The position numbers and the translations under genes were made by a program. Below are positions 14,101 to 63,068 of a DNA stretch of 64,000 nt, in pieces. How positions within the stretch are numbered: position 1 is the first letter of the stretch; the number at the start of each line of letters is the position of its first letter. This DNA comes from Haliotis rufescens (lineage: Eukaryota): positions 64,418,001 to 64,482,000 of the forward strand of contig NW_025963779.1 of the NCBI RefSeq assembly GCF_023055435.1, written 5' to 3'. The notes below the pieces were generated by a model. That model was given only the letters and a program-made list of their open reading frames with translations. It had not been told where the DNA came from and did not search any database.

Positions 14101-17100
14101 CCTTCCCCCGAACCGTTGCTCCCGCTATCGGTTTAGGACCGCGTGGCCATGGTTTAGGACCTCTTTGAGGACATGCCTCGGCCGGTACCGCGGGGAATCC
14201 ACGACTGTGGGTTCCTCCGAGGTATACGATGAGTCTTCCGACACGGCTTTCCCCGCATCGACCTTGCTGCGCGGTTTCAAGCCTTCCTTGGAGAACGCCT
14301 TCGCGGCGGCCTCCGGTCGGGGTCTCCCGTTACCTCCGACGTCGTGGAGAAAGGGTTTATTCCCGGTACATGACCTTGCCTTTCCCGAGGCTGGTCCTAC
14401 CGCGGAGGCCCATGTTGAGCGGTTGGGTGTCCGTGCCCCACCGGCTGCTACGGTAACGCAAGCTACCTTGCACCAGCTGGACTCCATGTCTCACTGAGAC
14501 ACTTACTTGGCTGCAGCGGCCCGTCTGGTCGAAGGTTCTCCCACGGACCGTGACCAGCGCATTTACAACTGCCTGCTCAGTTTAAATGCTTCCCTGGAGT
14601 ACGTTGCCGAGGACTCTCGGCACACACTTGCTCTTGTTGGGTCCCTGCATAGGCGCCTGGGTGCCGCTCCTAACCGGAGCGCGCCCCAGACTGCTGCGGC
14701 CTGTAGGTCTAAGGGGTCGGGTTCTTCTCTGGGAAGTAGCCCCGCCCTGAGGGCTCCAGTATGGGCAATCAGCTGCCCTTTCGCGGGAAGACGAGGAACT
14801 GGGGGGAGCCCAAGTCGTCGACGGACGGCAAGGGCCCCTCCAGGTGACTCTCATTGGAGGGGTTCGTATGCCGACAGCGCCAACTTCGGTTGGCCCTTAG
14901 GTGAACCCGAGTCACTTGGCCCTGGACAGTTGCGCCTGCCGCAACCTGTCAGGGCCCCCTCTCCTTCCCCAGTGGGAGCCAGACTCCAGACTTACTGTTA
15001 AACGACCCGTGGGTGGTCAACACGATTCGGGACGGCTATCGGCTTGATCTCAAAGCGAATCCGTTGCCCCGTTGGCAGGTTTCGATTCGGAAACCGATCT
15101 TCCCATCCTTGCCGATGCCATCGGCAGGTTGGTGGAGAAGGGGCAGTACGGGAGTTAGCTCTACTAGAAATAACACCGGGGTTTTACTCCAGGATATTTC
15201 TCGTTCCCAAGTAGGACAGTGCCGAACTCAGAATGATTCACACGTCCGCTCCCTGGCTGTTCACCCGGTTAACCACCCCCATAGTGGGGTTCCTCCACAG
15301 GAGGGGTGTCCGGTACTTCGCGTACCTGGACGACTCGCTAGTAGCAAATCGAATGACGGACACCCTGTCACGCCATCTCGATTTCGCACGTCGGCTCTTG
15401 GAGCAATTTGGGTGGATTATCAATCTCCCCAAGAGCGAGTTAACCCCTTCTCAGAACTTGCTGTTCATCGGAGGTCGGTTCAACACGGTGTCCCATCGCC
15501 TCTTTGTCCCCCCAGACCGGTGGCACAAAATTCAGGCGATGATTGCCAAAGTCTTAGCGGTGCAACAGACTGTTCACTTTTGGGAACAGCTGTTAGGGCT
15601 ACTTGTATCAGCCCAGGACTGCACCGCACGGGGTCGTCTCCAACTCCGCCCGCTGCAACGGTTTTTAATCCAGTTGTTAGCAACGGAGGTGAACAGTGCG
15701 ACCGTCGCCCTCCCGGATCTGCTCCGTCCGCATCTGGAGTGGTGGACGGTCCCTTACATTGTCTTATCAGGAGTCTCTATGCGGCCCTACCGGGCCACGT
15801 TGACCCTGTATAAAGACGCCTCTCTAGTGGGCTGGGGCGCCCATCTAAAGGGGGAGGTGAGCTTGGGGCTGTGGTGCGTAGACGAACTAGGTCTTCACAT
15901 CACTTGTCTCGAGTTCAAGGCAGTGATCAACGCAGTCAATCACTGGAAGCATCGTCTCGTCGACGCTCGGCTCATGCTGGCGACCGACAACACGACGGTA
16001 GTGTCCTATGTGAACAAACTGGGGGGAACCCACAGTCACTCGCTACTCGATCTCACGTTCGAGTTTTACGCTCTGGTGGACAGTGTCCCGTGCCAGATAC
16101 GCGCCCGTCACATCCAAGGTGTGCGGAACGTTCTGGCCGATGCTCTATCGAGGCCTCAGGATCCGAGCCCCACAGAGTGGATGCTGAACCCAGTAGTGTT
16201 TCAGTGGCTGTGCGAACGTTTGGGTCGTCCGGTGGTCCGGCAATCAACTCCCGTTGTTTGTATCACCAGTCCCGGACCCAAGGGCCATCGATCACGATGC
16301 TCTCGCGTTAGACTGGACGGGCTTGGTCGCTTATGCTTACCCGCCGACAGCATTGATACCACACATTCTAAGCCGGCTCCGAGGAGTTCGCTGTCGAATG
16401 TTACTGATCGCGCCCATGTGGCCGAACAGATCGTGGTACCCCGACTTGCTGACCCAGGTCACGCAGTCGCCACTTCCACTGCCTGTGAGACCGGATCTCT
16501 TGATCCACCCTCACACCCGTCAGCTTCATCCAAACGCAGGGCAGTTCAATCTGCACGCGTGGATGTTGTCACCGAGCGTCTGAGGAGTAAAGTTTTTTCT
16601 CGCCGGGCGTCTCGGGCATACGTTAGTATGCATCGTGATTCTATCCAGAAGGTGTACATGTATAATGCACTTTGGGTTATTTTCACGAAGTGGTGTTGTA
16701 AACATCACATTCATTCGCCAGATAAGGTATCTGTGCAGGATATTGCTCGTTTCATGTCTCACTTGCGAGAGACCCGGAAACTCTCCGGGGGTTCCATTGC
16801 CAACTATGTCTCGTCCGTGGCTACGGTACGGGACGTTGCTATGGGTACCAGTCTCTCCAAAGAGCCGGTGATACGGGGTATTATCAAGGGTTTCAAACAG
16901 CACGATCTTAAGAAGGGCCGCCTTCGGGCGACGGCCTGGGATCTTTCCCTAGTGTTGCAATCACTTACGGAAGCTCCGTATGAACCCTTGCATAGTGTTT
17001 CGTTCCGGCATGTGACTTGGAAAACAGCATTTCTCCTCTCCTTTGCCACGGCGGCACGTGTATCCGAAATTCATGCACTCGATGTCGCCAAGGTATGATT

Positions 17101-20100
17101 CGATAGGGGTGACGAAGGAGCGGTCCGCCTGGGCCTGCTCATGGGCTTCGTCGCCAAGAATCAGAGAGTCGGGCAGAGAATTCACTGTAAGATCACTCAA
17201 AGAAATCTTACATCCTGCTGATACTGAGGACAGAGCGCTGTGTCTGGTTAGGGCCCTTAAGTATTATCTTAAGGCTTCGAATGAACGTAGACAAGGGCGT
17301 GACCGTCTGTTCATATCGTGTAACCCTAATCGCACGGTTGACATAACTCGCAACTCGATTGCGTTGTGGCTTCGTTCTGTCATCAATCTGGCGTACCGGT
17401 CTCGGGGGTTACCGGTAGCGGGGTCAAACCCGCACGAGATCAGGGCGCTGGCGGCGACATTTGCCCTACACTCGAATATCTCTGTTCGCAGAATATTACG
17501 AGGTTGTTACTGGCGTTCTGACTCGGTTTTTGCCAATCATTACCTCAAACAGGTCGCTGATGCCGTCGTGGAGAGTGTGCACCGTCTTGGCCCGCGGATC
17601 GCGGCGCAAGCGGGCACCTAAGGGGTGTGCCCAGCGCAATTCCGAACTCCTCAGGCGTCTGACCTTGCACGGTGGTCAATCTGGGTCGACTCCAATGTTC
17701 CCACTGCCGTGGGTACAGGAGTTGGGGTCCCGCAAACCAGCGCACTCACACCACAGGTGAGGGCGGCTTTTTGTGTGCTTTGTCCTTATTTGTATTTTGA
17801 CAATTATGTCTTTAATTGTCTGTCGTGTATCCCAACCTTGTGATGCATGCTTACAAATACTGGAATTAGGTCACGCGCCTAATGCATACTTTAAGTAGGC
17901 TTGCTCTGGGATATACGGTCTGAATGAAATTAATTTCCCTCTTTTCGACTGTTTAACCTGATCTAAGATTAAGCTCACGCGGATACAGTGTTCTCATCCG
18001 CTGCTGCGATGAAATACCTATCCAGTGGGGCTGTTTGGAGTCACCAATCGTTTTGGCAATGACGATTGAGCCTTACGGTATGCGCTTGACAGTGCTTTGG
18101 TATTCCTATAGGGTAATGCCTAGCTAGGTGCATGCGCATCGAGTGCTTCCGCCTTGGTGTTTACTTCCGCTGGTCGGAAGGAACGCTAGCAGTCAGGATT
18201 CGGGTTGTAGGTGCTCCCCACCGCCTACTGTGGTAGTCAGCCTCGGTATAACAGTGGTAACGTATTACTTAATGTAATTTGTAGAATTTTCCTATTCGGA
18301 ATATTCTATAAGTAATACGTTACCACTGGGCTGCTGCCCGCCCGTCCGTCCCCCGAGCACTTGCTCTCGCAGGAGACAAGAGTGAAGGGTGTCACATGGC
18401 AGCTAGGTGGTTACGCACGTGCTGCATGAGGTAATTGAGATCTCTGTGGTAGATTTCGCTATAGCAGCAGTTGTGGGAGACAACAGCCTCGGTATAACAG
18501 TGGTAACGTATTACTTATAGAATATTCCGAATAGGAAAATTCTACAAAATTACTGGAATGTCTGGTCTAGACTTGATTATTTACAGTCCACCGTCATATA
18601 GCCGCAATATTGCTGAGTGCAGCGTTAAGCAAAAAACAAACAAATGATGACATAGTTCAGTGCAATAATGCGAGACAAACCTGGCCTATTCTATAATCAG
18701 CCAATCAGAAAATGGTGGTCCATTAGTGGGCATGGCCTTAGTCCTTTTCATTTATGGAAACAGAAATGCATAAATTTGCTTGGTTAACAAATGAAATAGT
18801 TTCTTGCCACTTGACCACCACCCAGTCATCTGTAATGTCATTAAAAGCCCTTTCATAGAGTATTAGACATTCAACATGCGTAATTTCAGTCAGAACATTC
18901 TTGCTTGTATCAGAAATAAATCAATTGCAGGTGATGCTATACCTGTCCAACCTGTACATATTACTATACATGGACATCAGGCAGTTCAGTTTAAGTCCCT
19001 GTGGACAGTGTAGACATTTAATTTGACTGTGGTCTTGTTTTCAGGTGGTGGAGTACTTGTGTCATGTTAACAATCTGGTGGAGAAAGGATTCAATCCAAT
19101 CCGTGCTGAGTTGGCACTGAATCTGTTCGACAACAATTTCCCAAAGGTACAGTTGGCTTGACTGCGTTTCATTTGATTGAACTTATATGTTTTATTATAC
19201 CCCCGACAAAATGTCGGGGGTTTATAGTTATACCAAGATTCCGTCCGTCCATCTGTCTGTCCGAAAACTTTGTCCGCACGATTTCTCTTAAACTATTCAG
19301 TGGATTCATCTCAAACTTAGTACATATAATCTGTGTCATATGGAGGGGTGCAGTCAAAAGAAAAAAAATTGTTTTGATTAATTTTCCATTTTTTTATGAA
19401 TTTTTCAAACCCTAACGTCCGTCTGAAAACTTTGTCCACGAGATTTCTCTTAAACTATTCAGTGGATTTATCTCAAACTTAGTACATGTAATCTGTGTGC
19501 TATGGAGGGGTGCAGTCAAAAGAAAAAAATTGTTTTGATTAATTTTCCATTTTTTTATGAATTTTTCAAACCCTAAAGGCTAACCCTATCCTAGCTATTT
19601 AATTTGTAACTACTGACACACTAGGCATGTCGGGAGTATTAGTTAGCCACGCTCACTTTTGCACTTGTTTAACCATGTTATGCATGTTTTGAAACCATGA
19701 TGGACGTGGGTCAGTGGTCTTGGTTGCCAAGTGGTTAAAGCGTTTGCTTGTCATGCCGAAAATCAGGGTTAGATTTCCGACATGTACAATGTGTGAAGCC
19801 CATTTCTGGTATCCCTCGCCGTGATATTGCTGGAATATTGCTAAAAGCGGAGTAACATCAAGCTCACTCACTGTTAGTGTAACAGATGCTGGTTGTGGGC
19901 TGCCTAACAAATTAGTTAGTGGAGGTACCTGGGATAGAATCATGTACTGCACAGACCTGTGAAGATCCAGGTTAGATAAGGTCTTCAGCAACCCATGCTT
20001 TCCCTAAGAGGTGACTGCTTGTCGTAAGAAGTAACTAACCAAATTTGGTGTTCAGGATCGCTGACTTGGTTGATGCATATCATCGTATTCCAATTGGAGG

Positions 20101-21520
20101 GATCGATGGTCATGATGTCAATCACTGGACTGTCTGGTCCAGACTCAATTATTTACAAACCGCTGTCATATAGCTGGAATATTGCTGAGTGTGGCGTTAA
20201 ACAACATACAAACAAAAAACATCTCATAGGACAAAGACCCCATCAGTTTGTGAATGCAAGATGAAAAAGAGGTAACAGATTGCCCATGGTTTGTCCACAC
20301 ACCGGCAGATCCAGGATTTTGAAGAAGGGGGCTGTGTACTGCGTACACATTGGGCTTCACTGCCATTAACATGATTGTGATACCTAAAGTTCAACATGGT
20401 GTTAAGACCCATCTTACCCAATCTCTGAAATGAATGGATTGCTTGTACTTCCCTGTTTTTGGTGTATATGTTGATCCACTAATGATTGAGAACAAAGAAT
20501 ATTTTGAAAGAAATCTTGAAAAAATGTTGAACATATATTTTTACTTATCCTACATTACTCCTTAATGCATCTGCTGCTTACCTGACAGACCGTCTCCATG
20601 GTCTAGTGGTAGAGCGTTCAATCCCCCACCGCGTCATACCAAAAGAGGTGAGGTGAAATTGGGTTTAACGTCGCGTCCAAGATTATTGCACTTATATAGC
20701 GACGTTCATACCAAAAGACGTTAAAAGATGGTACTTGTTGTTACCCTGTCTGGTGCTCAGCATTAAGGGGCTAAAACAAGGACTGGTCGGCTTGGAGTCA
20801 GTAAACTGTGTCTGAGTGGGGTATAGATGTTAAACTGCGACATGGTATCTCTGTGGGCTAGCACTATAAATCGACATCAGTCCGGNNNNNNNNNNNNNNN
20901 NNNNNNNNNNNNNNNNNNNNNNNNNNNNNNNNNNNNNNNNNNNNNNNNNNNNNNNNNNNNNNNNNNNNNNNNNNNNNNNNNNNNNNNNNNNNNNNNNNNN
21001 NNNNNNNNNNNNNNNNNNNNNNNNNNNNNNNAAGTGCAATCTTGGACCTGGCGTTAAACCCAATTTCACCTCACCACCGCTTACCTGACAACAAAGAAAC
21101 AGCACCTGGTGATGGTCCTTGATGAAGAAAAAATGATGTTTTCACATTCGGTCTACTTTTGAAAGGACCCATCGCCACTATCCAAATGTAAAAAATATTT
21201 CGATTTTACTTTAAAATTATTTTTTTTAATTGTTAGCTCTTGATTCAAGAAGGATGTGTTAGTGAGGTCCTATACACTGAAAGGTTGGGTAAAGGTTATT
21301 ATAGTTTTAGGGATGTAAAAGAGACTTTCTTGTTTTCAAAAATAGGACTGAATCTGAATAGCTGTCTTGACGTGGCACATTGTTCATATTTCAGGCTGAG
21401 AAGTACCTCGAGATGTTTGTGCAGTTCCAGGAATTAGGATTTGGTGAGGACAAGATCCGAGAAGCCCTTGTCAAGGAGAACATGGATCGTGACAAAGCTT
21501 TGGACTTCCTCACTGCGTGA
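2165..21520 (+). CDS. UBAP1: Ubiquitin-associated protein 1 (ESCRT-I subunit), about 584 aa, 7 coding exons
   Basis: Exons 2165-2210, 2827-2900, 10000-10059, 10743-11867, 12548-12769, 19045-19146, 21395-21520 join in frame with GT-AG introns. N-terminal UMA motif LDGVPFKVGPKFKPPPRVFLP...YLFETE; central FEREDDPFENVERQLINEMEELKTLL; C-terminal SOUBA repeats (MGFSRPQVARAV, KGFNP, LGFGEDKIREALVKENMDRDKALDFL). Confidence 0.9.
2997..3257. mobile_element. MITE with long imperfect TIRs
   Basis: ACTTACCCTATCTCACACTTTGCATTTCTTCCT...AGGAAGAAATGCATAGTGTGAGATAGGATAAGT; complementarity extends about 90 bp inward. Confidence 0.7.
4010..4230 (-). mobile_element. SINE-like family C copy
   Basis: Reverse complement of the 50.1-kb copy, 5'-truncated. 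Confidence 0.75.
5157..7900 (+). CDS. Harbinger Myb/SANT-like DNA-binding protein (MADF plus BESS-like), 237 aa, 3 exons
   Basis: Exons 5157-5340, 6355-6542, 7559-7900 join in frame. MADF pattern FIGYYASHDCLWN...KISTLRTYYGKELRK...KSGAGTDEVYVSTWEWF; BESS-like C-terminus DMLFAKYIASEL...KIKIQQLIFE. Confidence 0.87.
6730..9763 (-). CDS. Harbinger DDE transposase (HARBI1-like), 409 aa, 3 exons
   Basis: Exons 9763-9427, 8347-8232, 7506-6730 join in frame (1230 nt). Motifs NFLRM, PGEKLAITLRYLATGDSY, GALDGKHI, IVGDDAFPL, FNYRLSRARRVSENAFG; DDE triad intact. Confidence 0.93.
10087..10333. mobile_element. MITE (family shared with 31882-32178)
   Basis: TIR cores TGGTTCTCAGGC and GCCTGGGAACCA; the interior is homologous, inverted, to the 31.9-kb copy. 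Confidence 0.6.
13495..14700 (+). pseudogene. DIRS gag-like ORF, disrupted
   Basis: Cys/His finger CGVCRKFLSSRDPHDRCPRC...CILCEGL, an internal duplication (about 13790-13920 and 13947-14075), a stop at 13981 and later frameshifts. Confidence 0.7.
15000..16583 (+). pseudogene. DIRS reverse transcriptase / RNase H / Dam-like methyltransferase ORF, deleted and frameshifted
   Basis: APWLFTRL, YLDD, GWIINLPKSELTP, DASLVGWG, HITCLEFKAV, TDNTT, ADALSR. The methyltransferase segment DALALDW...YAYPP...LIAPMWPNRSWYP is in another frame (16254-16583). The RT N-terminal part is missing. Confidence 0.85.
16585..17621 (+). pseudogene. DIRS tyrosine recombinase, frameshifted near 17100-17170
   Basis: WDLSLVLQSL..PYEPL, KTAFLLSFATAARVSEIHAL, then LCLVRALKYYL, PHEIRALAATFA, YWRSDSVFANHYLK (R-H-x-x-R-W-Y catalytic pattern). 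Confidence 0.85.
19193..19660 (+). mobile_element. Helentron-associated (HINE / DINE-1 / pearl-like) non-autonomous element
   Basis: 5' TTATACCCCCGACA...TGTCGGGGG short inverted repeat, a GTCC/GTCT microsatellite, two tandem 162-bp core repeats, a 3' TGTCGGGAGTAT subterminal repeat and T-rich flanks. Confidence 0.65.
19714..19872 (+). mobile_element. SINE family A copy
   Basis: Colinear with 30230-30406. Confidence 0.7.
19954..20220 (+). mobile_element. SINE-like family C copy
   Basis: Colinear with 50094-50333. Confidence 0.75.
20588..21077 (+). mobile_element. SINE family D copy spanning the gap
   Basis: Colinear with 63717-64000; a (CACCT) tail follows the gap. Confidence 0.7.
20886..21031. 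other. Assembly gap
   Basis: Run of N inside a SINE copy. Confidence 1.
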
Positions 21521-30229: not shown

Positions 30230-30406
30230 GGGGGCGGTCGGGTAGCCTAGTGGTTTAAGTGTTCGCTCGTCACGCCGAAGACCCGGGTTCGATTCCTGAC
30301 ATGGGTACAATGTGTGAAGCCAATTTCTGGTGTCCCCCCGCCCTGATTTTGCGGGAATATTGCTAAAAGCGGCGTAAAACCATTCTCACTCACTCACTCA
30401 CTCACT
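30230..30406 (+). mobile_element. SINE family A (tRNA-Asp-like head)
   Basis: A box TAGCCTAGTGG, GTC anticodon position, B box GGTTCGATTCC, shared tail GGAATATTGCTAAAAGCGGCGTAAAAC and (CACT)n. Other copies at about 6610-6688, 19714-19872, 58848-58970 and 34530-34640 (-). Confidence 0.8.
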
Positions 30407-31592: not shown

Positions 31593-34500
31593 CTAAGCAT
31601 TTCGGTGTTTGTTTCCCTTCTTGAGCCTGCTCTCCTTCAGCTTCTGAGCTTGTCTGGATATCGTCTTGTTCAAACTGCTGTACTTCTGGCTGTCATTCCT
31701 GTCAGAAAAGGTGATAATCAAGAGTTATCCTCCTTGGACCATAATATTGATTGATACCAAAGCCAACGTAATTAAAGGAAATAAGATTGACCATCTGCAT
31801 TCAATGACAACGGAATACAACTTCAACTGGGGTATTTCAAATCGTAATACTTGTAAGGATGTTAAATTATGAGTAGGTATTAGGCTAAAAAAAAAAATAG
31901 TCTTGGTTCCCAGGCACCCCCTGCATCATCATCAAGTTTGACACATGCTTCATTTTAATTTCCATTTCCCTAAATATTCAAAGTCAAAAATCGTATTCCT
32001 GTACACATGTATTTAACTCATCAAGGAATACATTTATGTCCGGTGCCCCTTTCCCACAACTGTTTTTTTGGTTACATACTAGTTTGAACAACCCCCCCAA
32101 AAACAAAAAAACACCACCCGAATACACTATATTTTCAAAAGCTATAGCCTGAGAACCAATTATTATTTTCTTAAGCCTTAGTTTAATTATTTTTTACTGG
32201 TACACAACAAACTGTCCACTCAAACAACAAGCTGGATATATATGTAATATTATGTTATGTACTGTACACAAACAACAGATTAGATATCTTAAAGTGAGTG
32301 AACACATAGATTTGATGTGAAAATAGTAAATCATAAGATTTTTCCATTTTACAACCTTTTTACAGATGACAAAGCCATTCACCAAGACAGTATTCATAGA
32401 CATAGTTCAACCAATACTAATTAAGCTCAGTAAACATTTCATGATATAATGTTGTACCTACTGAACATATCAGTGATAACAAAACAAAATGTCACTGATT
32501 CATGTACAACATGTACTGACAAACCTCAGATAAAACAATTTGAGGGTCCAGAGGTAGGTCATACTATAAATTTACGTGTGTTTTGTCTGTTGTTTAACAC
32601 CACACTCAGCAATATTTCAGCTATATGACTACGGTTTGGACCAGACAGCCCAGTGATTGACACCATAAGCATCGATCCACGCAATTGTTATACGATGACA
32701 TGCATCAACCAAGTCAGCGAGCCTGACCACCCGATCCCGTTAGTCACCACTTACCCATATTTTAATAGTTTCTTATCCTCATACAACCTTTTTCACAATA
32801 CCTCTCCCTTCGATCCCATGACACGGAACCCAGAACATGCCTCTATCAGGGGAGCTCTCTCCCCGTCACTGACCTTCCCTTGAACACCCACTTTCCACTT
32901 ATCTGAATGCTGCTAACAACATTTTATGATAAGTATACTAAGATATAATAAATATTGTAGTGTATATAAAATACTACCTATGAAAGAACTTCAGTGCACT
33001 TACTTGCCCATCTTGACCTTGTTGCGACATCCCAAACCTCCCTCCCAGTGTGAGGACTTCCCTCGGGTCAACATCTGCTGACAAGTCACACACGGTCGGT
33101 CTGGGGCATACATCTGAACAAAAGAATAATTACACTAACATTAGATGTCACAAATCTTACATCACCAGGCATGGTCAGGAAACTGTAGATGTGGCTAAAC
33201 ATGCTTAAAGAAAAATAATTTTTATGACCGTTTTGGGGCAACTTCTACAACTGGTAAAATGAAATTGTATACATGTATATGAGTCTCTGCCAAATGATAG
33301 GACAACATGCATTTCTCTTTCATTAATTTGTTCTAATGTTAATCAACTTTTTTCAATTTTCAAAGTGAGAAAAGTATTCTGCACTACATGAGCATATTAA
33401 TAAGATTTCACAACATGAATAATATGAAGATTTAAGAACATGAATGCTTACCTGTTCCTTACAGCAGAAGCCACAGATGACTCTGTTGGCAAACACCATC
33501 TCATGGCCATCGGACTGCTCGTCATGACACACATCACAAGGGTACACCATGCCACAACAGGGGAACCTGCAATACACCAGGCAGTTGGTCAGGAGGGGTC
33601 AGGGGGGGCCGAAACCTTGGTTAATAGCCGTCACAGCATCACAAACACATTGTGACAAGTTACACAGGTTCAATGCTGATTTTTGTCAAGTATGAAGTTT
33701 CTGAGTGAATTGTGTTATACGTGGTCAACAGTTTTAGTGTTGTACAGCAGGATTCATTTCTGTTGTCAGTTTCCACTCACCTGAACCAGCGGTAACTCTT
33801 CTTGTAGTGTTTGCAGGCACCATTGTCTGGCAGTGGCTTGCCCTCCTTTATTGCAGGGTCCTTCAGTACCCTTCGTTTCTTAATTGCAACCTCGTGAACC
33901 TTCTGCTTGGGGTCTGAAATAGAGAAACTGAGGTTAGAAGAAATTTTTTAAGTGGACTCCCAAGATTATATGCAGGGTTTGATCAATAATAAGGGTGGTA
34001 CAAGTTTGTCCTCAACAAATTCAAGGCCTTTTCTGGGCTTTTTCAAGGCAGTTTCAGTCAAATACAAGGCAAATAAATAACAAACAAGAAGTTCACTCAT
34101 TTGACTGATGTACACAGCCTCCAGCTTGTGACTTCACGTTTAAATTACTCGTAAGCACACAGCATTAGTGCATATGTTAGCAGACATTCAAAAGCAAGTT
34201 GCTCTTGTTGTCTTCCCACTACAACCTACCTGTGACAACACCAGATGGCTGAAGTTGAAAAAACTGTACAGTATCCGTAGCAATCTTCATCTTCTGATGG
34301 CAGTGACGACACCAGGTGTTGGACACCTGACCAGGAAGCAGACCCTAAAATTAAACAAAAAATTCTAAAACTATTGAATGATAATCAAAATCTTCTCTCA
34401 GTCAAACATCTACATTTGGTTTTCAAATTGGATAGGGTTGTCCAGGCGACCTGGATCCCCCCTTCATGATCTACCTCTGTGATAGTTTGTGACTGATTGG

Positions 34501-37500
34501 AAATAACAATGGGTTAATGCTGCTTTAGCTATTTTCAAGCAATATGGGACAGGGAATCCTGATGTGTGCCTCACATAGGTATAAAACCCTATTTTGGGTC
34601 TGACAAGCAGACTTGGACCACTAGGCTACAATATCACCCCAACATAATCAAGAGTATGAACCTTGAAAGTCAACCAGCTACTTAGTAGGAGACCAACAGA
34701 TTCCACCAAAAACAAACCCACAATACTACTTCCCAGACTAAGGATACGATTAGGTATACAGTCCAAGAAATACAAACAAGTCTGAATTAATTAAATTCGG
34801 GCACTGACTACTGTATTAGATCAAAAATCTTAATCAGTGCACCAATGCCTATCCCAAGATAAACCATTATATATATAATATTATGTTGTGTTCAACATGA
34901 AGTTGGCAAGATGATAGCTTACACTGATCTTCGACTCTTTAGAGCAGTTGACACAGCCAACCCTTGCTTCGCAATCTTGTAGCACAAGGTCAAAGGCTGT
35001 GCAGTTTTCAAGGTCAAGGTAACCCATGACTGAGGAGAACTGGTGCATGAGCACTGGTCGGAAGGTGAGCAGTTGGGACTGGTTACACTTGGTGCAGGAC
35101 ACGGAGTTGATTCTATGAGAAGGAGTGTTGAAGTCAGTGTGGTTCTTGCATCGTCCACACTGAATAGTTATGTGAATCTTGTCACACATCAGGGTGTTTG
35201 CTCCTTCTCGCAACTGCAGATTTTTCAAAGTGATCTCTGTTCCTTTCTTCTCCGTGTCCATATCACGGTCAGTATTGTGAGAGGCAGGTGTAGGCTCGCT
35301 GTCCTCATCTGAGCAAGTTTCCCCTGAATCCACGTCGCTGTACTCATCAGAATCTTCCTCTGAGCCGTCCAGTTCCAAGTCCTCATTATTTTCCGATGCC
35401 TTGTACTTAGTCTGCAGCTCAGTGGCATTAATGAACTGGAAACCAGCTGCCTTCGCCACAATTTCTCTTTTCATCTGTAAATAAAATGCATATCTTGCCT
35501 GAACCTAAATGGATGACTGGATGAGAGAATACACAAGTTTAGTTTCACACTGCTAACACCAACATACCAGCAACATCACAGACAGGGGCTTCACATATCT
35601 GAAGACGAAACATGGCGGCAAATCATTTGGCACTGTTTGATAAATTGGGGGATTCACTAAAACATAGTGTTCATACACAGTCTCAAAAGTTACTTCATTC
35701 AATGAAATTACATCTTAAACATCCATAATTTTAAGCAAGACACAATACGATAAAGAATAAAGATACATGTATTACTACCCTGTGTCTCCATATCATAAAT
35801 ATCATAAATCAGGAATAAGAAATAAATCTTGTTCTCACCACTGGCTCACACAATACAGGTTTTATTTCTAATATCTCAGGACAAACAACCTTTATATATT
35901 ACCAGTGCAACAGTGCATAATTTACCTGTTTCAGTGCTTCAGTAACATTAGCTTCAAGGCTCTTGTCAAACCATCGGAGAAATGGTCTGAAGATAATCTC
36001 ATAATTTCCTTGTGTTTCCAAATAGTCCCTTTTCTCCTTCACCCAACCAACAACACAACTGTCCAGGTATCTGTGGAAATCATATGATCTTTTAGAGATC
36101 AACCACATAAAGATAATCAAAAGATCTGACAGCTTAAAAATAATCATGTTTAAGTTCTCAGTAGGTGATCATGGTTAACATGGTTAAACATATTATAATT
36201 ATTTTGCAATCCATACTGGAAATATTTTGATAGTGCATCCTTCATATTCATGGAATATAAATTGTTTATTCAGCTGTATTAGCATGTTTAGATAATCTCT
36301 AAATTATCATGCGATACATCTTCATATTCGAAACTCTAGTAGAAGACAAATAATTTACCCAAGCTGATTCTTTTGTACTGGTAATGTTACTTCATTTTTT
36401 AATCATTTTATGCTTAACTGTTTTGCTCAACATGCACAAAAACAAGACAGATTTAACCTTCCCACTGTAGCTGGCAAATCTTGATCCTCTGGCAGAGTGA
36501 TACTCAGCATCTGAAACATTTAGAATCGAGACTGTATCACACAATTTATTTCTGTCCAGATCATGTGGTGGAAACAACATCTGCATGTCAAGTACCTTGT
36601 TTTATCTGTCATACATGTCATCATTAGTTATAATTGATGCTAAATTTTAATGAGAAAATCCACTCAAAAGGATCATCAAGCAAATACCCTAACTTAAAAA
36701 GACTTTTCTAAATAAAACATCTGACAATTTCTTCTCTTATTAAACAAGAAACACAAAGTACACTGTAGTAATAGGCAATAAAGTCACAAACTTACCTCAC
36801 GGGGGTAGGTAGAAGGAATAGTGAACTCAAGTTCAAAGTTCTTGACATCATATGGCTGTAAAAAAGATGTAACCATGGTAACAGCAATAAATAAAAGTTC
36901 TTTTCTCAAAGATGGCTATCATTAACACAAAGTAAGAGTAATTATGAGTAAATAAATTTATCATGTTAACAAAATGTTGATCTTCATCAGGTGTACAATC
37001 CACTTAGAAATTAGTAGTTTGATATACATTGGTTTAACATATCTACTATGTGCTATTTCAGCATATTCAATTAAAGTACAGTACGGCGTTAAAGTACCGG
37101 TACTTACCCAATCAGGGTCACTTGGATGGAAGTTGACATTGCACTGAAAAGTGTCCGGATCATCATTTATGACTTTGCATCTGTCTCTGGGGAACCTTTT
37201 TTTCAGTTGATCAATCTCTGTCTTTCTTAGCTTATCCATTTCCTCTTGAGAAGCTGTCTCTCTTCTCAAAAGGATTTTCTGATTTGGGGGCTTAACAGGG
37301 GGCCTGCTGGGAAAGGTCTGCTGTCTTTGACCTGAGCTCATCTGTTGTCTGGCTCCAGAACCATTTGTAGAATCCTTAGATTCAGCCGCAATCTTGGTAT
37401 TGCCATGATTGCTTGTTTCTTGAATATCAACTGACTCATCAAAATTTTCAATCAAATCATCCATCATGTCCATGGGATGCCAAAACCGACATCTCTCTCC

Positions 37501-38256
37501 CCATCTGCAGTACCCTTTTTTGAAATAAGGACAAAGTCTCTTATTGCTTCTGGTTGGGTCAGGCCGATCAAGCACACTCTTTGATTTCTCTGAGGCTTGC
37601 ACCGTCTCTTTCTTACTTTCTCGATCGATATTTTGTGATTGTTTAACAACTTGTCGATGGTTTTTGTCATGTTGGAAATGGCACCGTTGCCCATAGTGAC
37701 AACGTCCAGTTCTAGCAAAGAAATTACAAATTCTTTTTTCATTCTTCTTGTCATCATGAGAAGATGTTTCAGGTCCTTGTTGTCTGTCTACTGCTTGTGA
37801 ATCATCTTCATTATCTTTTTGTTGAAAAGGTAACGAATCTGCAGTGGATGGGACTGGAGCAATTGAAGATGCTTGACTTACTGCATGTTGAGTGTCAGGA
37901 ATTTCGTGAAGAAAACGACACTTCTTACCAAAACTGCACCACCTGCGTTTAGCAAAAAAACTGCATATTTTGATACCTGAGGTAGTTTCACTTAAACTGT
38001 TGCTCGCCTGAGAAACAACCTGATCACAGTTTTCTTGATTTAGGCCTTCATAGTTACCTTCAGGGGTGATCTTGGGACAACTTTCACCTGGGTTCAAGAG
38101 TGACGGAGGAGATTCTTCAGCAAGTGGTCTACCAGCTTGGTGATCACTAGCAGTTGATAAATCTCTCACTGTGTGCTGATATCGACAAGCGTCACCGTAC
38201 CGACATATCTTTCCTCGTGAATAAAATCTGCACAATTGTCCTGAAGCAAATGACAT
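31593..38256 (-). CDS. CCCH zinc finger / RWD-like / CHY zinc finger protein, about 845 aa, 10 coding exons
   Basis: Exons 38256-37108, 36855-36796, 36510-36458, 36070-35926, 35474-34923, 34344-34230, 33913-33781, 33566-33452, 33113-33004, 31698-31593 are all GT-AG and phase-compatible. Four CCCH fingers; PSDPDWPYD...IPSTYP; CxxC pairs; GACKHYKKSYRWFRFPCCGMVYPCDVCHD; HWEGGLGCRN. The start codon could lie further upstream. Confidence 0.88.
31882..32178. mobile_element. MITE
   Basis: AGGCT-An-TAG..TTGGTTCCCAGGC...GCCTGAGAACCAA..AAGCCT inverted termini. Confidence 0.65.
32580..32748 (-). mobile_element. SINE-like family C copy
   Basis: Reverse-complement match to the body and tail. Confidence 0.7.
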
Positions 38257-38424
38257 AACCTGATCAACTGAACCTTCGATTGGCTGTTGCTTGAACAGAT
38301 TGATCTTTGTTTTCAAATCCTCTGAACTTGTTGATTTGAACGTGATTAAATTTCTTCTGCTGTTTGAAGTTTCCAGCAACAACGCTGCCTTTAAGTCTGC
38401 AAAAGACTTGGCGAAAATAATCAC

Positions 38425-38915
38425 TGGTTAGATTGTCAGGTGACTGTCCTACCTCACTCGGTCAAGACCTAAATAATGCAAACAAAGATGAAAAAAGTAC
38501 AAAATGTAAAACCTCTGTAATAAACTTAACCTTACTACCTCACTCCTACAAGAAGGGAGGAATAGGCTCGGAGCAATGATCAGTGAAGACGCCGGTATAT
38601 ATATACACCTGGTGGGTATTGCACCACAAGGGCCAATATCTCCAAATTTCAGTGTATCAGTTGAAGGAAGTTGTGCAATGATGTTACCGGAAGTGCCTTA
38701 CAACACATGACAGGAAATTACTACACGCTAAATCCTAGTTCTGTAAACACTTTTTAAAATTAAACATATCAAGTGAACATTATTAACATACAATTGTAAA
38801 AATGATAATCCCTTGTTAAAAAAAATTGGAGGTAGGAAATTGTGATAGACTTTCATGGTCTCTAACATATATCTTGAATATTGTTACGCAGGGTCAAGGT
38901 CACAGAAGTACAAAC
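38425..38915. promoter_or_regulatory. Probable bidirectional promoter
   Basis: About 660 bp separate the divergent ATGs. ETS site CCGGAAGT at about 38687; YY1-like AACATGGC overlaps the EF-Tu start. Confidence 0.55.
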
Positions 38916-40331
38916 ATGGCCGCGCACATGTTTCAGTGTCTGTGGCGTGTGCCAGGGCGTTTTAATCTGCTTACTACAAGATCGCTGTTGAATGACACCA
39001 AGGTTAAAATAACTTGGAATGCCCTAAAGCCTTTTTGCACAAATACGCCACCGTCGAACACTGTTGATAAGCCCCATTGTAATATTGGGACGATAGGTCA
39101 TGTTGATCACGGTAAAACCACTTTGACAGCCGCTATTACCAAAGTACTTGCAAGTAAAACAGGAAGCAGAACCCGATTTATCAAATATGATGAAATTGAT
39201 AGAGCGCCCCAAGAAAAGCTTCGTGGAATAACAATTAATTCTACTCATGTAGAATATGAAACTGATAACCGACATTATGCACATACAGATTGTCCAGGTC
39301 ATCTTGATTATGTCAAAAATATGATCACAGGAGCCTCGCAAATGGACGGAGCAATATTAGTGGTTGCAGCTACAGATGGCACTATGCCACAAACAAGAGA
39401 ACACTTGCTTCTGGCACGACAGATTGGGATAAAGAATATTGTTGTATATATCAATAAAACAGACATGGTAGATGGAGAACTTGTTGAGCTTGTGGAATTA
39501 GAAATTCGAGAGCTATTGACTGAATATGGATACAACGGAGATGAAACTCCTGTTATTGCTGGATCAGCACTTAAGGCTTTACATGGGACTGATCCAAGTA
39601 TTGGTGAGGACTCGATTCACAGTTTGTTGAAAAGCATAGATAAGCATGTGCCAATTCCAAATCGAGACACATCCGGTCCGTTTTACATGCCGATAGAAGC
39701 AGCAATATCTGTTCGTGGCAGAGGAACAGTTGTCATTGGTACTGTGCAACAGGGGTTTATAAGGAAAGGTGATAGCGCTGATATTCTTGGATTTGGAAAT
39801 GCTCTGAAAACCGCAGCATCTGATATTCAGGTTTTCAATAAATCGATTCCTCATTGTAGTGCAGGTGAAAATGTTGGCATTCTTCTCAGAGGTGTGAAAT
39901 CTGAATTTGTTCAAAGAGGAATGTTTTTATGTCATCCTGATTTGTTTGAACAGAAAGATACGTTTGAGACTCAGCTTTATGTCTTAACAAAGACTGAAGG
40001 TGGTCGGTCAAAACCTTTGACAGACAAATATATTCAAATGTTGTTCTGTAACATGTGGAATATTTCGGCAATGGTGAAGCTTCCTGAAGGAAGGGATATT
40101 GTGATGGGAGGAGACACTGTTACAGCAACTGTGCTACTTAGAAAACCAATGGTATTCACTGTAGGACAGCGATACACTGTTAGAGAAAATAAACTGACTG
40201 CCCTCACTGGTGTGATAACTAAAGTGTTGCCTTCGCTGGACATCAGAATCCAAGGTTTCAATTTTGAACGACCAAGAAGTCACAGAATAGAAGGAAATGC
40301 TTGGCTAACTAGGAAAAGAAGACTGACATGA
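38916..40331 (+). CDS. TUFM: Mitochondrial elongation factor Tu, divergent (EF-Tu2-like), intronless CDS, 471 aa
   Basis: Arg/Leu-rich N-terminal presequence; [56 protein letters not shown]; domains II and III; a C-terminal extension of about 33 aa. Confidence 0.92.
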
Positions 40332-40881: not shown

Positions 40882-43406
40882 AACAGCTATTGCATCTTAG
40901 TTTGGGAAATGAATTTCAGTCTTCATGGCAACTCTATATGTCAATAGTAAGGGTGCCATCACTATTTCCAGTGCAGGTTGGTGCAGAGTTTGTGTGATAG
41001 GCCCAACACCATGAGAATGATGAGTAGTTATTAGTGGTGGATTTGCTGTGATAATATGTTGGCAATGAAAGAATGTGGAATAAAGACTACAAATTAAATT
41101 CAGATTCTAAGTGTACTTCTTTACCACATTTACAGGACCTATTATGATGTACTGTGAAACCCCATCAGGCCAGACTGAAATATTTCCCCTGAATTCGTCT
41201 GGATAAATAAGTCATTTTTAAAGAGGAGTATCCTTTGTATAAATGTAGAGCAGGGTTTCTGGACTCTCAGGTCTGGAGTTTACTATAACAGAAGAAAATA
41301 AGGACCAATCAATTATCAAAGAGCTTATTTCAGTAAGCATGCCATTTGATTGTCCTGTTCTGTGTTTGGTAGCCCCTTTGGGACTTGTGTTAGAATTGTT
41401 CCCCAGTAACAAAAATGGATCTGATGGTCAGACTGTGAGTCATCATATCCTTATGGCCAGACTCTATTTTTTACCTGTCGTCCTGATTCTGCTGGGAGAT
41501 TGCTGGCTCCAGCTTCAAACAACATTCACGCACTGTTGAGTACAATATGTCGCTCTGGGCATCATTGAAAGTTCACGTGAGCTTGTGTCATGTAGCATTT
41601 TCTGTTGTCCGCTATATTATTACAATTTGACACCTGCTCTGAAACCATATGATGAACAAAAACAATAAGTTAGGGGGTGCCCAACTCTTCTTAGGAGCTG
41701 GATATTCACTGTACCGAGTTGTGTGATTAGGTGTGCCAGAATCCTGACCGTGTTTGAATCCCGGATTAGCTTTGGTTCAGATTCTTGGTTTCTCGGCACC
41801 ATACATGCATAAAAACATTCAAGACCTGAATCACTTCAGGCTTTCATCCCACATCAAGGCGACACCTTGGGATATCAATGAAATACTGTGAGAAGCAGAA
41901 ATACATCCAACTCGTTCACCATATTTACTACAATGCGCTTCTGATCTAAATAGACTGAGGTGCAAAAGAAACAATACCTCCCCATTGATTTTATCATGTT
42001 TGATTTTCAATTGTAAATATCTTAAGCTAGCAATATTATATTTTAAACATTAACTGTACTGGTGCTTAGTCAGCACTCATCTCAAAGAATATGTCTACCA
42101 TGATAATTTGACTTATAACTCTTCAAGATATAAACAATATTTTTCTCTCTCATAATTCACAGCTGCTCAAGGGTATCTTAGACATCTTATCTTTGAAAAT
42201 CAATAAATTTGCTTTTTTTACAGCACAAATTTACATTTTAAATATGATATGTCGTGGTGGCAAATTCATTTCTTAGCCCAGTCTTCATTGAACCACTATA
42301 TTTTTACACAAAATAAACCAGCAACAGATTTCTTTTTACTGTTGCAGGAAAGAGTGATGGTTACTTAGACATGATTACATTAAACAACAGCTCTTTCAAT
42401 CTTCAACAACATAAAATATAAACTCAGTATACTTTCTTTTGCTTCTCTGTTTATGTGGGACATGCCTGCATTACCTAAGACTTGCACACAATGTGCAGAA
42501 TTCTGCACAAACCTGACCTAATATTAATATGAAGAAACAACAAAAAAGACAAAGACAGACAATTGTGTTCTTTAATCATGTTTATGACATTGTACAACTT
42601 TCATTAATGGCCTAACAAATTTGCCATCTTGTCTTGGCCCCTGAAAGCATTTTTTTTTATCTATGAAAGGTATTAACATTTCAGGTTACATTTGCATAAG
42701 ATATATGATGTTTAACTTAAAAATGTCTGACTTGATTGGACTGAATAGTATAAACAAATTAACAAATTAATTACTGTGAACATGAAAGACACATAACTGT
42801 TAAACATAATTCTTAACTTTATGAAAACAATGAATCTGAGTGGAATCTTTTCAACAACTTGCAACAAAATGTAAATAAATAGAAAAACTGCTTCAGCATG
42901 TCATATTCAGTGTCTAATGAACAGATAAATTCACAACTTCAGTAAATATGGTGAAATGATAGATATGGTGTCATGAAATGAGTTAAGAGAAACAGAAAAA
43001 CAATACACATTGATAATATTGGATATTCACTTAGGGTCACTGCTTCATCTTCCTGTTTGATCTCAGTTTAATCTGTACCATCAGAATAGAGCATGCTGAG
43101 CTCACTTCTCAGATGTGGAAACCTGTGTTTCTGTTCATCAAATATCATTTGAGTGGTGGCAAAGGAGGTCGTCTAGAAGAAATGGCGCCGAGGTTAATGG
43201 AGGTGAAGGAGGTCATCAGGGAAGTGTTTGGAATGTAGCACTTTGAGCACACTTTAGGGTGTGGATTTGGTGCATTATAAATATGCACATTATTATTTTT
43301 ATTTTGCTCTGAGGTCAGAGGAGACAAAGGAGGTCCAATGATCAGTCTGGAATGATTCTGCTCTGAGATTACAATAGGCCTGTTGACAATACATCTCTCT
43401 GTACCC

Positions 43407-50093: not shown

Positions 50094-50333
50094 GACCCGT
50101 GAAGGTCCGGGGTAGAATAGGTCTTCAGCAACCCATGCTTGCCGTAAAAAGCGACTAACGGGATCTGGTGGTCAGGCTCGCTGACTTGGTTGATGCATGT
50201 CATGGTATCCCAATTGCATGGATCGATGCTCATGATGTCAATCACTGGATTGTCTAGTCGAGATTGGTTTATTTACAGAACGCCGATATATAGCTGGAAT
50301 ATTGCTGAGTGCGTCGTTAAACAACAAACAAAC
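50094..50333 (+). mobile_element. SINE-like family C (no tRNA head; structured 5' end)
   Basis: GACCCGTGAAGGTCC...GCTGGAATATTGCTGAGTGCGTCGTTAAAC(AAAC)n; at least nine copies or fragments in the window. Confidence 0.8.
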
Positions 50334-60200: not shown

Positions 60201-63068
60201 AAAGTGTGTCTGAGACTGAAAGTGTGACAAACAGTATGTTGTATGTTGTAAGTTGTCATGTTGTTTCAGTTCCTGTGAAGAACCTATCAGGAACATTTTG
60301 ACTGTACTGGTAAACAGCTTGGGAAGACAGCAGATCATTGCGACACTTCAGAGCAACAACATTGACGCCAACAAGTTCATGTGAGTCTTCAGTGCCCTGT
60401 GTCAGCTAACCAGCATTGTATCTAACAGGAACAATAGTATTCCATCGCAGTGGGGTTCTGGGATGTCGGGGACAGAATAGTAAGGACAAAAGTAGTTACA
60501 GGCCCGTTAAGATCTGTGGTAGTGAAGGTCTTCTGCAACCCATGCTTGCCGTAAAAGGCGACTGTGCTTGTCGTAAGATGCGACTAACGGGATCGGATGG
60601 TCAGGTTCGCTGACTCGGTTGATGCATGCATCGTGTCCCAATTGTGTGGATCAATACTCATGATGTCAATCACTGGATTGTCTGGTCCAGACTCGATTAT
60701 TTACAGACCACTGTCATATAGCTGGAATATTGCTGAGTGTGGCGTTAAACAACAAACTAACACCCAAACAAAATAGTAGTTACATTGTCACAGGGATTCC
60801 TGGTAAGAATAGGGCCCCATGCAGCACCACATATTTGTCACAAGAGCAATAGTTACATCGTCAAATGAGTCTCTGAAGTTCACAGGGATTCCTGGGTCAG
60901 AATAGTTGTCACTATCCCACAACTAAAAGCTGACCACTGAGGATTCGGTGGTTACAATCAATAACAAGATGTGACTTGATGTTTGTGTTGGGTGTTGCCC
61001 AGAGGATTTGGATGGCTTCTGATGCTGTCAACCACTGGTTTGCCTGTCCTAAATTTGATTATGTACAGGCTGCTGTGATATTGCTCTTCAACAATGATTA
61101 GAGAATTCAATATCCTCATCTAAGACATGTTGTAGCTGATTTCAATGTTATACTACTTGTGTTTAGTTATCTTTTGGGTGTGTCTAGGACCTGCATCACT
61201 TGGGTCTTTCATGCCACTTGAAGCTGACATGCAGTGATATAACTAAATTACTGTTCGAAGCGGTGGCTTGCTGTAAGAGGCGACTATGCTTGTCGTATGA
61301 GCCAACTAACGGGATGGCATGGTCAGACCTGCTGACTTGGTTGATGCATGTCATCGTATTCCAATTGTATAGATCGATGCTCATGATATCAGTCACTGGA
61401 TTGTCTATTAGAGACACAATTATTTACAGACCTCCGTCATATAGCAAGAATATTGCTGAGTGCAGCGTTAAGCAACAAACAAAAAATCAAAGCAGTGTGA
61501 AATTTTTTATGTGAAGTTGAATACAAGTGAGTTTGATGTAATGTTCTGGAATATGTATCAACCTTACATGATAGATAATCAATCCTGCAGGCCAATCTGA
61601 AGTTTCTTACATCTGTAATCTTATTACTTGCTTACACTATGCAGAGTTACGTCTCTTGGGCATGCCAGAAATCTCTGATTCTGGGTTTGAATCCTGATTC
61701 AATCCTGACTGAATCCTGACTTTCGTCTCACATCAAGCTGACACGCTGTGATATAACTGGAATACTGTTCCAAGCAGTGTTAAACCCAACTCACTCACTC
61801 ATGCTTACCTTTCCAGCCCTGCTGAAGGTGCCCAGCAGCCCGGAGTCAACCCAAATCTTCAGCCACTCAATCCTGCAGGCCAACCACAGACTGGTGATCA
61901 ACAGCCTGTAAACAACCAGGGGCAGCCTGCAGGAGTGAACCAGTCCGGTCAGAACCTTGGTGGACAGCCACAACTGCAGAATCCTGCAGACCAACAACCA
62001 CCCCAGAATCCTGCCGATCCACAACAGCAACAGAACGCTGGCCAACAACCACCCCAGAATGCTGCCGATCCACAACAGCAACAGAACGTTGGACAACAAC
62101 CACCCCAGAATCCTGCCGATCCACAACAGCAACAGAACGTTGGACAACAACCACCCCAGAATCCTGCCGATCCACAACAGCAACAGAACGTTGGACAACA
62201 ACCACCCCAGAATCCTGCCGATCCACAACAGCAACAGAACGCTGGCCAACAACCACCCCAGAATCCTGCCGATCAACCTCAGCAGGGGCTCAATGTTGTT
62301 CCGCAGCCCAATGTGAATCAAGAGGAAAATCCAGGTCAGCAGAATGTAGTTGGGGTAGAAGGGAAGGGTGGTGTCTCAGAGCATGAAGCAGGTGTGTCTG
62401 CTGGTGTAAATAGTAGTGCCATGCATGAACAGGGTAATAGGGAGGTGCCAAGTAGTGAAGGAAAGGCTGATAGTAAAGCAGTTGCAAAGGAGTCAAATGT
62501 AACCACCACCACCATCACAACAACCAGTGGAGAGCCAGAGAGGAAAGAAACCAGTAAGACTGGAGAAACGAAAAGTGGAGGTCTTTTGAAAGGGCTGTTG
62601 GCAAATGCGAGGGGGCTAGAAACAGATGTCAAAGGTTCAGCAGGGAAAGTAGACAGGACTGAAACTACCAAAGCTGGAGAAGCCCCGACAACAAATGGTA
62701 CACCCAAAGAAGGGCCAGTGGCAGACGGCAAAGAACCTGCAGCAGATGTCACAGGGTCTGCTGAGGAACTCAAGGACACTGAAACAACCAAGTCTGGCAC
62801 AAATGGTACTTCCAAAATAGTAGCAGACGGCGAAAAACCTGCAGCTGACGACAAAGAAACTGGAGATAAAGACAAGAAAACAAGATATAATTTTAAAGAA
62901 GGTCAAGGCCCAGTAGAGAACTTTAAAGGCAAAGAAGGCTTCGAAGTTCTTGATGAGTTTGGAAAAGAGCTGAAGAGACTCAATAAGTCGAAGCATGGTA
63001 AGCTAGATGGGACTCTAACAGATATTATCATTGCCCCCGTGAGGTTACCGCTTGTTCAAGTTAGGTAA
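51275..63068 (+). CDS. GOLM2/CASC4/GOLM1-like type II Golgi membrane protein
   Basis: Exons 51275-51649, 53232-53286, 54292-54349, 60270-60380 and 61817-(63068) join in frame. N-terminus GRAPPFLLIGLLVVMCILGYSYWSVAS (short basic tail, one TM helix, YW motif), then coiled coil and a low-complexity region. The last exon may splice out earlier and the gene may continue beyond the window. Confidence 0.72.
53670..53853. mobile_element. Tc1/Tigger-type MITE relic
   Basis: CAGTAAA...TTTACTG-TA termini with repeated GTTCGTTATA subterminal motifs. Confidence 0.5.
54371..54608 (+). mobile_element. SINE-like family C, divergent subfamily
   Basis: Same layout as 50094-50333, with substituted stems. Confidence 0.65.
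54620..55095. repeat. Degenerate tandem repeat of about 30 bp
   Basis: Recurrent AAACAGGTTCAGTCAGGTCAACAATAA-like units. Confidence 0.5.
56030..56443. mobile_element. hAT-like non-autonomous element (related copy at about 51895-52147)
   Basis: CAGGG...CCCTA termini and repeated GGGTACCC motifs; colinear with 51895-52147. Confidence 0.5.
57601..58153. mobile_element. Mutator-like MITE with 9-bp TSD
   Basis: TIRs of about 63 bp (CATCTTCCCGAGGCAAG...); CCATATCCC duplicated at 57592-57600 and 58154-58162. Confidence 0.85.
58211..58733. mobile_element. hAT-like MITE with 6-bp TSD
   Basis: TIR CAGTGTTCCC / GGGAACACTG; GGCATT at 58205-58210 and 58734-58739; repeated TTACCRG motifs. Confidence 0.7.
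59464..59785. mobile_element. Tc1/pogo-type MITE (second copy)
   Basis: Colinear with 28845-29187. Confidence 0.8.
60501..60770 (+). mobile_element. SINE-like family C copy
   Basis: Colinear; carries a duplicated TGCTTGYCGTAARA.GCGACT hairpin. Confidence 0.78.
61255..61485 (+). mobile_element. SINE-like family C copy
   Basis: 5'-truncated colinear copy. Confidence 0.7.
61998..62285 (+). repeat. Coding 51-bp tandem repeat (PPQNPADPQQQQNVGQQ, about 5.5 copies)
   Basis: Seen directly in the DNA and in ORF 61935..63068. Confidence 0.92.

Follow-up and report, generated by a model that had tools for sequence, protein, structure and literature searches.

The window analysed here, a 64,000-nt stretch of the Haliotis rufescens genome (contig NW_025963779.1, positions 64,418,001 to 64,482,000), contains at least eight related pieces of one SINE family. 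The copy described below starts at G50094, is about 240 bp long and is modular, with a head of about 70 nt followed by a body, a LINE-like tail and short A/C-rich repeats. This copy, the predicted parts of its head and its relatives in the window are as follows.

50094 to 50333, forward strand: SINE copy of the LP-SINE type, with head, body, LINE-like tail and short A/C-rich repeats
50096 to 50111, forward strand: pseudoknot stem S1 (predicted pairing of 50096-50099 with 50108-50111); the element starts 2 nt earlier
50100 to 50126, forward strand: one-base loop L1 (50100) and predicted stem S2 (50101-50107 with 50120-50126)
50112 to 50119, forward strand: predicted pseudoknot loop L3, with conserved AGAAT(A) at its end and long insertions tolerated on its 5' side
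50132 to 50162, forward strand: predicted 3' hairpin, whose stem P3 joins 50132-50136 to 50158-50162, with a single A-C mismatch in the window copy
50132 to 50162, forward strand: same predicted hairpin, stem P4 (50141-50144 with 50152-50155), with a 7-nt loop and a preceding asymmetric internal loop
50179 to 50231, forward strand: body segment, possibly a decayed tRNA-like region, with weak likeness to a tRNA head
50290 to 50321, forward strand: 3' tail common to I-group LINE 3' ends, 91% over 32 nt to LINE L381
54370 to 54608, forward strand: old-subfamily copy with other S2 letters and an L3 insertion
19954 to 20213, forward strand: copy with duplicated 3' hairpin
60498 to 60762, forward strand: copy with duplicated 3' hairpin
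60790 to 60835, forward strand: decayed head fragment, cited in the original prediction, its decay too advanced for a fold test
41370 to 41431, forward strand: another old head, which has lost the 3' hairpin by deletion (15.9 bits)
61266 to 61486, forward strand: 5'-truncated copy
4011 to 4239, reverse strand: 5'-truncated copy
32582 to 32754, reverse strand: 5'-truncated copy

Elsewhere in the window, a tRNA-headed SINE family (19722-19872 and 30241-30394) has a tail resembling those of the LP-type SINE and the LINEs. An element of about 5.6 kb (12954-18553) has 99% inverted ends (12961-13110 and 18368-18517), more short internal inverted matches, overlapping long ORFs and a weak RT match, a layout that we take to be DIRS-like. 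Two long single ORFs encode a CCCH zinc-finger protein (36961-38427, reverse strand) and, divergent from it, an EF-Tu-family GTPase (38820-40331, forward strand).

Genome-wide, a first look gave 2862 candidates for the SINE family, and a covariance model applied to 600 kb sampled at round positions on large contigs found 75 head matches, 53 with the SINE body behind them, and 36 young heads; scaled up from this sample, the copy number is roughly 10^5. The young SINE has a mismatch in P3 and often one in P4, and 25 of the 36 young heads, taken from random genomic DNA, have the 3' hairpin duplicated, while old and young subfamilies differ by double compensatory changes in S2. Exact target-site duplications of at least 8 nt flank 20 of 44 full copies, 15 of them adjoining G1 and five offset by 2-8 nt. 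Compared with five tRNA-like sequences, the head scored at shuffle level and the body weakly above it, and the head is not a tRNA-like 5' head with A and B boxes of the SINE2 type. The original prediction that Pol III A and B boxes are absent holds for the head; in the body, an exact B-box-like string lies at +127/128 in 4 of 8 copies.

LP ("LINE promoter") SINEs have been described in Haliotis, Ostrea, Saccostrea and Littorina (Matetovici et al. 2016, PMC4758252), with a length of 255 bp in two Haliotis species (Hdi_LP and Hmi_LP) and a first ~70 bp that matches the 5' ends of Nimb-17_LMi, I-3_DR and RTE-9_CPB. Set beside Hdi_LP and Hmi_LP by length and description, the window SINE is probably this published abalone element: as in the covered parts of that paper, a LINE-derived head of ~70 bp replaces the tRNA head, the length is near 255 bp, and target-site duplications and terminal short repeats are present. 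Our copies have the LINE-homologous 5' head, variable target-site duplications, terminal tandem repeats and LINE-like tail of the class; the length of the window copy fits the 255-bp consensus, and the AATATA hexamer given in PMC4758252 is absent from its tail. The function put forward there for the head is that of a promoter, with an analogy to the ingi/L1Tc ribozyme mentioned, and the parts covered differ from the present account in holding no RNA fold, viral occurrence or upstream ribozyme. In supplementary Fig. S2 of the same paper, the scallop "Nimb-17 homology" segment has, by eye, the same core hairpin and AGAAT with other S2 letters. The SINE family and the homology of its head to LINE 5' ends are therefore probably already published. 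Open-licence full texts gave only PMC4758252 on the motif or on the function of the head, and in them we found no match to the fold, the viral occurrence or the arrangement of ribozyme plus head.

Structurally, the head is predicted to form a 5'-terminal H-type pseudoknot (S1 of 4-6 bp, a one-base L1, S2 of 7 bp and a loop ending in AGAATA) and, downstream of the knot, a separate hairpin interrupted by an internal loop and closed by a near-invariant cap, a fold that covariation across 20 families supports. These families are represented by one row each, chosen by hand from 40 rows, and because they are related and hand-picked the permutation counts given here are not probabilities. S1, which joins the 5'-terminal C run to the loop G run, forms all four of its Watson-Crick pairs in 15 of the 20 families, with compensatory changes at two positions, and 1 of 20000 permutations was equally good. 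In the 40-row alignment, fitted with a model that lacked S1, 80.9% of S1 cells are paired, and the structure containing S1 (with one G-C pair added) has a covariation of 0.204 versus 0.119 when shuffled, a value reached in 0 of 500 shuffles. The same alignment has 84.3% of S2 cells paired and double changes at all 6 pairs; 16 of the 20 families have at least 6 of 7 S2 pairs, with 19 different sequences (0 of 20000 permutations), and the single base of L1 is U in 19 of 20. AGAAT is invariant in 24 rows, for which the search pattern is partly responsible, and it recurs in viral and LINE copies retrieved without AGAAT in the query. The P3 run total is 92 versus 65.2 with swapped tails (0 of 5000), and P3 shrinks to only 2 pairs in 3 of 20 families, namely two of the four viruses described below and one animal family. 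P4 is present in all 29 LINE heads found by protein and shows no covariation among families of which most came from a pattern containing P4.

All letter strings cited in the original prediction are present in the window where it placed them, and its 7-8 bp hairpin (50101-50107 with 50120-50126), AGAAT loop segment, small hairpin and GAC-TAA exist as described and are conserved well outside the Haliotis genome. That the head is pseudoknotted is likewise supported by covariation, with the partners named for the knot likely mis-assigned. Its outer stem and loop pairing are not supported. The proposed outer stem together with the loop-GGGT/ACCC pairing left 56.3% of cells paired versus 54.8% in shuffles (62 of 500 as high; 33 of 500 for covariation), and the outer stem alone gave 73 paired positions versus 67.5 with swapped tails (397 of 5000). 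The covariation cited for these pairings is in part one-sided, the ACC side being unchanged in the 19954 copy. Across the 20 families, S1 is complete (4 of 4) in 15, the outer stem in 3, the loop pseudoknot in 4 and both rivals together in 0, with the rival pairings given more registers than S1. The young SINE, taken by itself, is compatible with either fold, and for the decayed 54371 copy the outer stem is the better fit; the stability of the nested fold of the 50094 copy is not unusual versus shuffles (z 0.49).

The LINE origin of the head, also part of the original prediction, is confirmed by an ORF1 query in the abalone's own genome, where the same head lies 550-680 nt before the ORF1 match in 29 of 30 fetched I-group loci. 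These LINEs encode an ORF1 with a zinc knuckle and an ORF2 with APE endonuclease, RT and RNase H domains; our assignment is to the I group, the finer label Nimb being that of PMC4758252. A SINE tail matches the 3' end of 29 of 30 ORF2-end loci (82-94% over 24-44 nt), and the exact partner LINE was not found among these loci, whose tails match and whose terminal repeat units differ.

At their 5' ends, the 29 loci fall into two types: LINE-A (4 of 29), with the head at the very start, and LINE-B (25 of 29), with an extra 58-nt module directly upstream of it. This module is HDV-like: three HDV-family models matched, all below their gathering scores (best RF02682, E 0.0026), and all 24 whole copies have complete pairing in P1 and P2, and 23 of them in P3. 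The module (L370:212-269 and 23 other loci among L339-L364) forms the exact 5' end and is a candidate compact HDV-like ribozyme, and open-licence full-text literature searches returned no earlier report of an HDV-like ribozyme in Nimb-type elements. We rejected the alternative that the LINE-B elements had inserted into a target represented by the common sequence before their heads, as this sequence belongs to the element. Whole modules are retained in 24 of 25 LINE-B copies, one begins inside the module and none begins at the head. Ten loci with two long ORFs were analysed out of 18 extended LINE loci, and all 10 have exact target-site duplications of 11-15 nt adjoining their first base; this base opens S1 in 2 of 2 LINE-A and is the ribozyme G1 in 8 of 8 LINE-B. 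In four families (27, 21, 7 and 34 copies), common sequence drops to background 0-2 nt before S1. The head thus marks the 5' boundary of the element unless a ribozyme precedes it.

Evolutionarily, LINE-A ORF2 is 78% identical to that of two LINE-B lineages and 62% to that of another. Likeness among the 5' regions of LINE-B is 90-100%, so that the 5' ends have had a reticulate history in which loss and gain of the ribozyme cannot be ordered. In L367, L370 and L381, a 5' UTR stretch of ~200 nt past the head is 78-97% alike while ORF1 is only 44-67% identical, and the start of this stretch recurs in L332 and L335. Small-RNA reads, which carry no information on 5' ends, numbered 15 on the SINE and 126, all antisense, on the LINE-B 5' UTR in one of three runs; over the pseudoknot (L370:275-305), 104 antisense 31-nt reads from one run share a single start and a first base U and are piRNA-like. 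Tandem arrays with units of ~51 nt that consist of the pseudoknot half of the head only lie at L450:190-569 and L474:1562-2090.

Beyond animal genomes, a 16-nt core pattern found seven loci in the viral collection, five of which, from four distinct viruses, also carry the unqueried upstream knot and AGAAT. Among these viral contigs, Pfam assigned RdRP_3 to two, one of which also has a nodavirus-type capsid, and a Peptidase_A21 capsid to a third, leaving one without a match; the L040 protein matched nothing in Pfam or PDB, and its RdRp-like label comes from motifs seen by eye. In all four viruses the motif lies on the coding strand past the last ORF, about 6, 10, 75 and 100 nt beyond the last stop codon, and one virus has a second, compensated copy of the knot in tandem, interrupted by the contig end. 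Three relaxed viral patterns (32, 48 and 62 stretches) yielded no further homologue after inspection or a structure filter, and protein-led viral scans added a single relative, on a contig that breaks off ahead of the 3' UTR. Six viral scans gave only four viruses in total. Because S1, S2 and P3 covary across the 20 families and the motif occupies the coding strand of contigs bearing an RdRp or a capsid, these comparisons indicate that the head works as an RNA.

A metagenome scan returned at least 119 stretches from several unrelated animal repeat families. At L133, L127 and related metagenome loci, the head precedes a tRNA-like segment, as in scallop MESC SINEs (by eye). Of five matches in prokaryote assemblies, four carry the motif and look like host contamination, two of them running into a LINE ORF1; L331, L332, L333 and L335 are animal SINE/LINE sequence, probably from the host.

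Rfam 15, scanned at E-values up to 1-10 with window, viral, LINE and metagenome copies, gave no match of the head to hammerhead, twister, twister-sister, pistol, hatchet or hairpin ribozymes, nor to the HDV-like nested double pseudoknot (P1/P1.1/P2/P3/P4, conserved L3, catalytic C in J4/2), and the same scan that skipped the head did detect the HDV-like module upstream of it in LINE-B. In line with the original prediction, the head belongs to no described Rfam class. Like the HDV-like ribozymes of R2, RTE and L1Tc/ingi, the head is a short mobile 5' module marking an exact 5' end; unlike them, it has no nested double pseudoknot, and in LINE-B it lies downstream of the ribozyme. With the H-type frameshift pseudoknots of luteovirus type it shares a short S1, a one-base L1 and an A-rich loop across S1, but it lies outside any coding frame and has a longer S2 and a coupled conserved hairpin.

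Further parallels are found among viral xrRNAs. These sit where viral 3' UTRs begin (PMC11702639, parts covered); Xrn1 halts at the 5' base of P1 in the ST9a xrRNA, as far as the source covers it; and the coremin xrRNA is modelled, in the sections covered, as an H-type-like knot dependent on a downstream hairpin (PMC10321173; PMC10520033). The head resembles them as a compact pseudoknot that occurs at the start of the 3' UTR in plus-strand RNA viruses, also in tandem, with its boundary at the base of the first stem and, as in the coremin model, a knot plus a downstream hairpin. Covariation and boundaries place a predicted pseudoknot at the 5' boundary of what would be the protected RNA. The differences are that its topology and sequence are its own, that its hosts are retrotransposons and that its resistance is a prediction. 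Rfam gave no match to the flavivirus xrRNA classes 1 and 2, to class 3 (ST9a, dianthovirus, polerovirus) or to coremin, and the topology is unlike the class descriptions. xrRNAs are defined by a ring of 15-16 nt that encircles the 5' end (PMC8374639, parts covered). The head thus lies outside every described xrRNA class and would likely work like one; in the covered parts of the same review, xrRNAs in cellular RNAs are treated as yet to be found (PMC8374639).

From these comparisons, we put the chance at about even that the head is an xrRNA-like maker of 5' ends. In outline, the head RNA would fold into a 5'-terminal pseudoknot followed by a hairpin, and the knot would stall host 5'-to-3' exonucleases; where a host transcript reads through a copy, decay would spare the RNA from the knot onwards, and the I-group LINE reverse transcriptase may then copy this RNA from the common 3' tail. 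Placement past the last stop codon in the viruses, the usual place of xrRNAs, counts for this reading, as does the start of elements at the head wherever it is their first module. LINE-B copies bear on it as well. HDV-type cleavage leaves a 5' hydroxyl, and Xrn1-type enzymes do not take 5'-OH ends. Self-cleavage, a transcription start or a reverse-transcriptase stop at the head should each lose the upstream module, whereas a block to exonucleases that require a 5' phosphate would keep it, because the ribozyme leaves a 5' hydroxyl, and for the same reason the block would be idle in LINE-B.

Several observations weigh against an exonuclease block. Four ordinary H-type frameshift pseudoknots, the kind to which the head was likened above, did not resist or stall Xrn1 (PMC10321173, parts covered), and the topology of the head fits no known xrRNA class. 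P3 has just 2 pairs in two of four viruses and one animal family. LINE-B lineages with ORF2 up to 38% different retain the head behind the ribozyme, where a pure block would be redundant, an argument weakened by LINE-B 5' regions that look homogenised. Finally, the near-invariant loop of the 3' hairpin lies 50-60 nt from the 5' end and resembles a binding site; a block does not account for it, and the invariance of this hairpin suggests a second role in ribosome or protein binding.

It is conceivable, if unlikely, that the head serves as a platform to which ribosomes or initiation factors bind, acting as a cap-independent translation enhancer in viral 3' UTRs and on uncapped LINE RNA and bringing SINE RNA, too, to ribosomes making ORF2 protein. 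The near-invariant hairpin loop and internal loop point in this direction, as does the retention of the head immediately after a ribozyme whose cleavage yields an uncapped end, and tombus-like viruses use 3' translation enhancers. Binding alone does not account for the start 0-2 nt before S1 that unrelated families have in common although their bodies, too, are unrelated; moreover, we know of no resemblance of the head to the BTE, PTE or TSS enhancer classes, and there was no Rfam match. The platform may also be combined with the block, the knot blocking and the hairpin binding.

The original prediction, partly supported overall, rightly tied the head to the making of the 5' end; it also saw in the head a candidate self-cleaving ribozyme. 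That it belongs to a new ribozyme class cutting at its 5' edge now seems quite improbable: 5' ends do coincide with the first paired base or lie no more than 2 nt away from it, as is the case for HDV-like heads, invariant unpaired bases could form an active site, and ribozymes occur in UTRs of linear RNA viruses (PMC13725137, parts covered), but such a cut would remove the HDV-like module that stands intact 5' of the head in 24 of 25 LINE-B copies, unless the HDV P2 helix stands in its way, cleavage where a viral 3' UTR begins would split the genome, and no ribozyme model matched even at E up to 1-10. We give little credence to the view that the structure is functional in LINEs and viruses and is inherited baggage in a SINE transcribed by other means; the P3 mismatch, frequent P4 mismatch and duplicated hairpin (25 of 36) of young SINE heads agree with it, as does neutral decay of genomic copies, while the double compensatory changes in S2 between old and young subfamilies, and the many independent SINE-like families that start at the knot, speak against it. 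Least credible is that the head acts as an internal promoter at the DNA level, as proposed under the name "LINE promoter" in PMC4758252 (parts covered), which suits the 5'-end position, the strong sequence conservation and the precedent of the L1Tc 77-mer, both promoter and ribozyme, but accounts for neither stem covariation nor presence in RNA viruses and predicts LINE-B copies starting at the head, seen in 0 of 25.

Returning to the xrRNA-like reading, the exact 5' ends of promoter-less non-LTR elements have so far been credited to ribozymes or internal promoters, and an exonuclease block would, if true, be a third route to a retrotransposon 5' end, with an xrRNA encoded at about 10^5 places in an animal genome. 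Both the 5'-end question and that of cellular xrRNAs can be tested on an 80-nt RNA with the standard Xrn1 assay, and the genome supplies a built-in control in the form of LINEs that have a ribozyme before the head and LINEs that lack one. A structured RNA common to retrotransposons and RNA viruses would be a rare exchange of a module between them. Thus we posit, at a little short of even chances, a new class of exonuclease-blocking RNA common to RNA viruses and animal retrotransposons, through which the decay machinery of the host would carve promoter-less LINEs and SINEs out of host transcripts.
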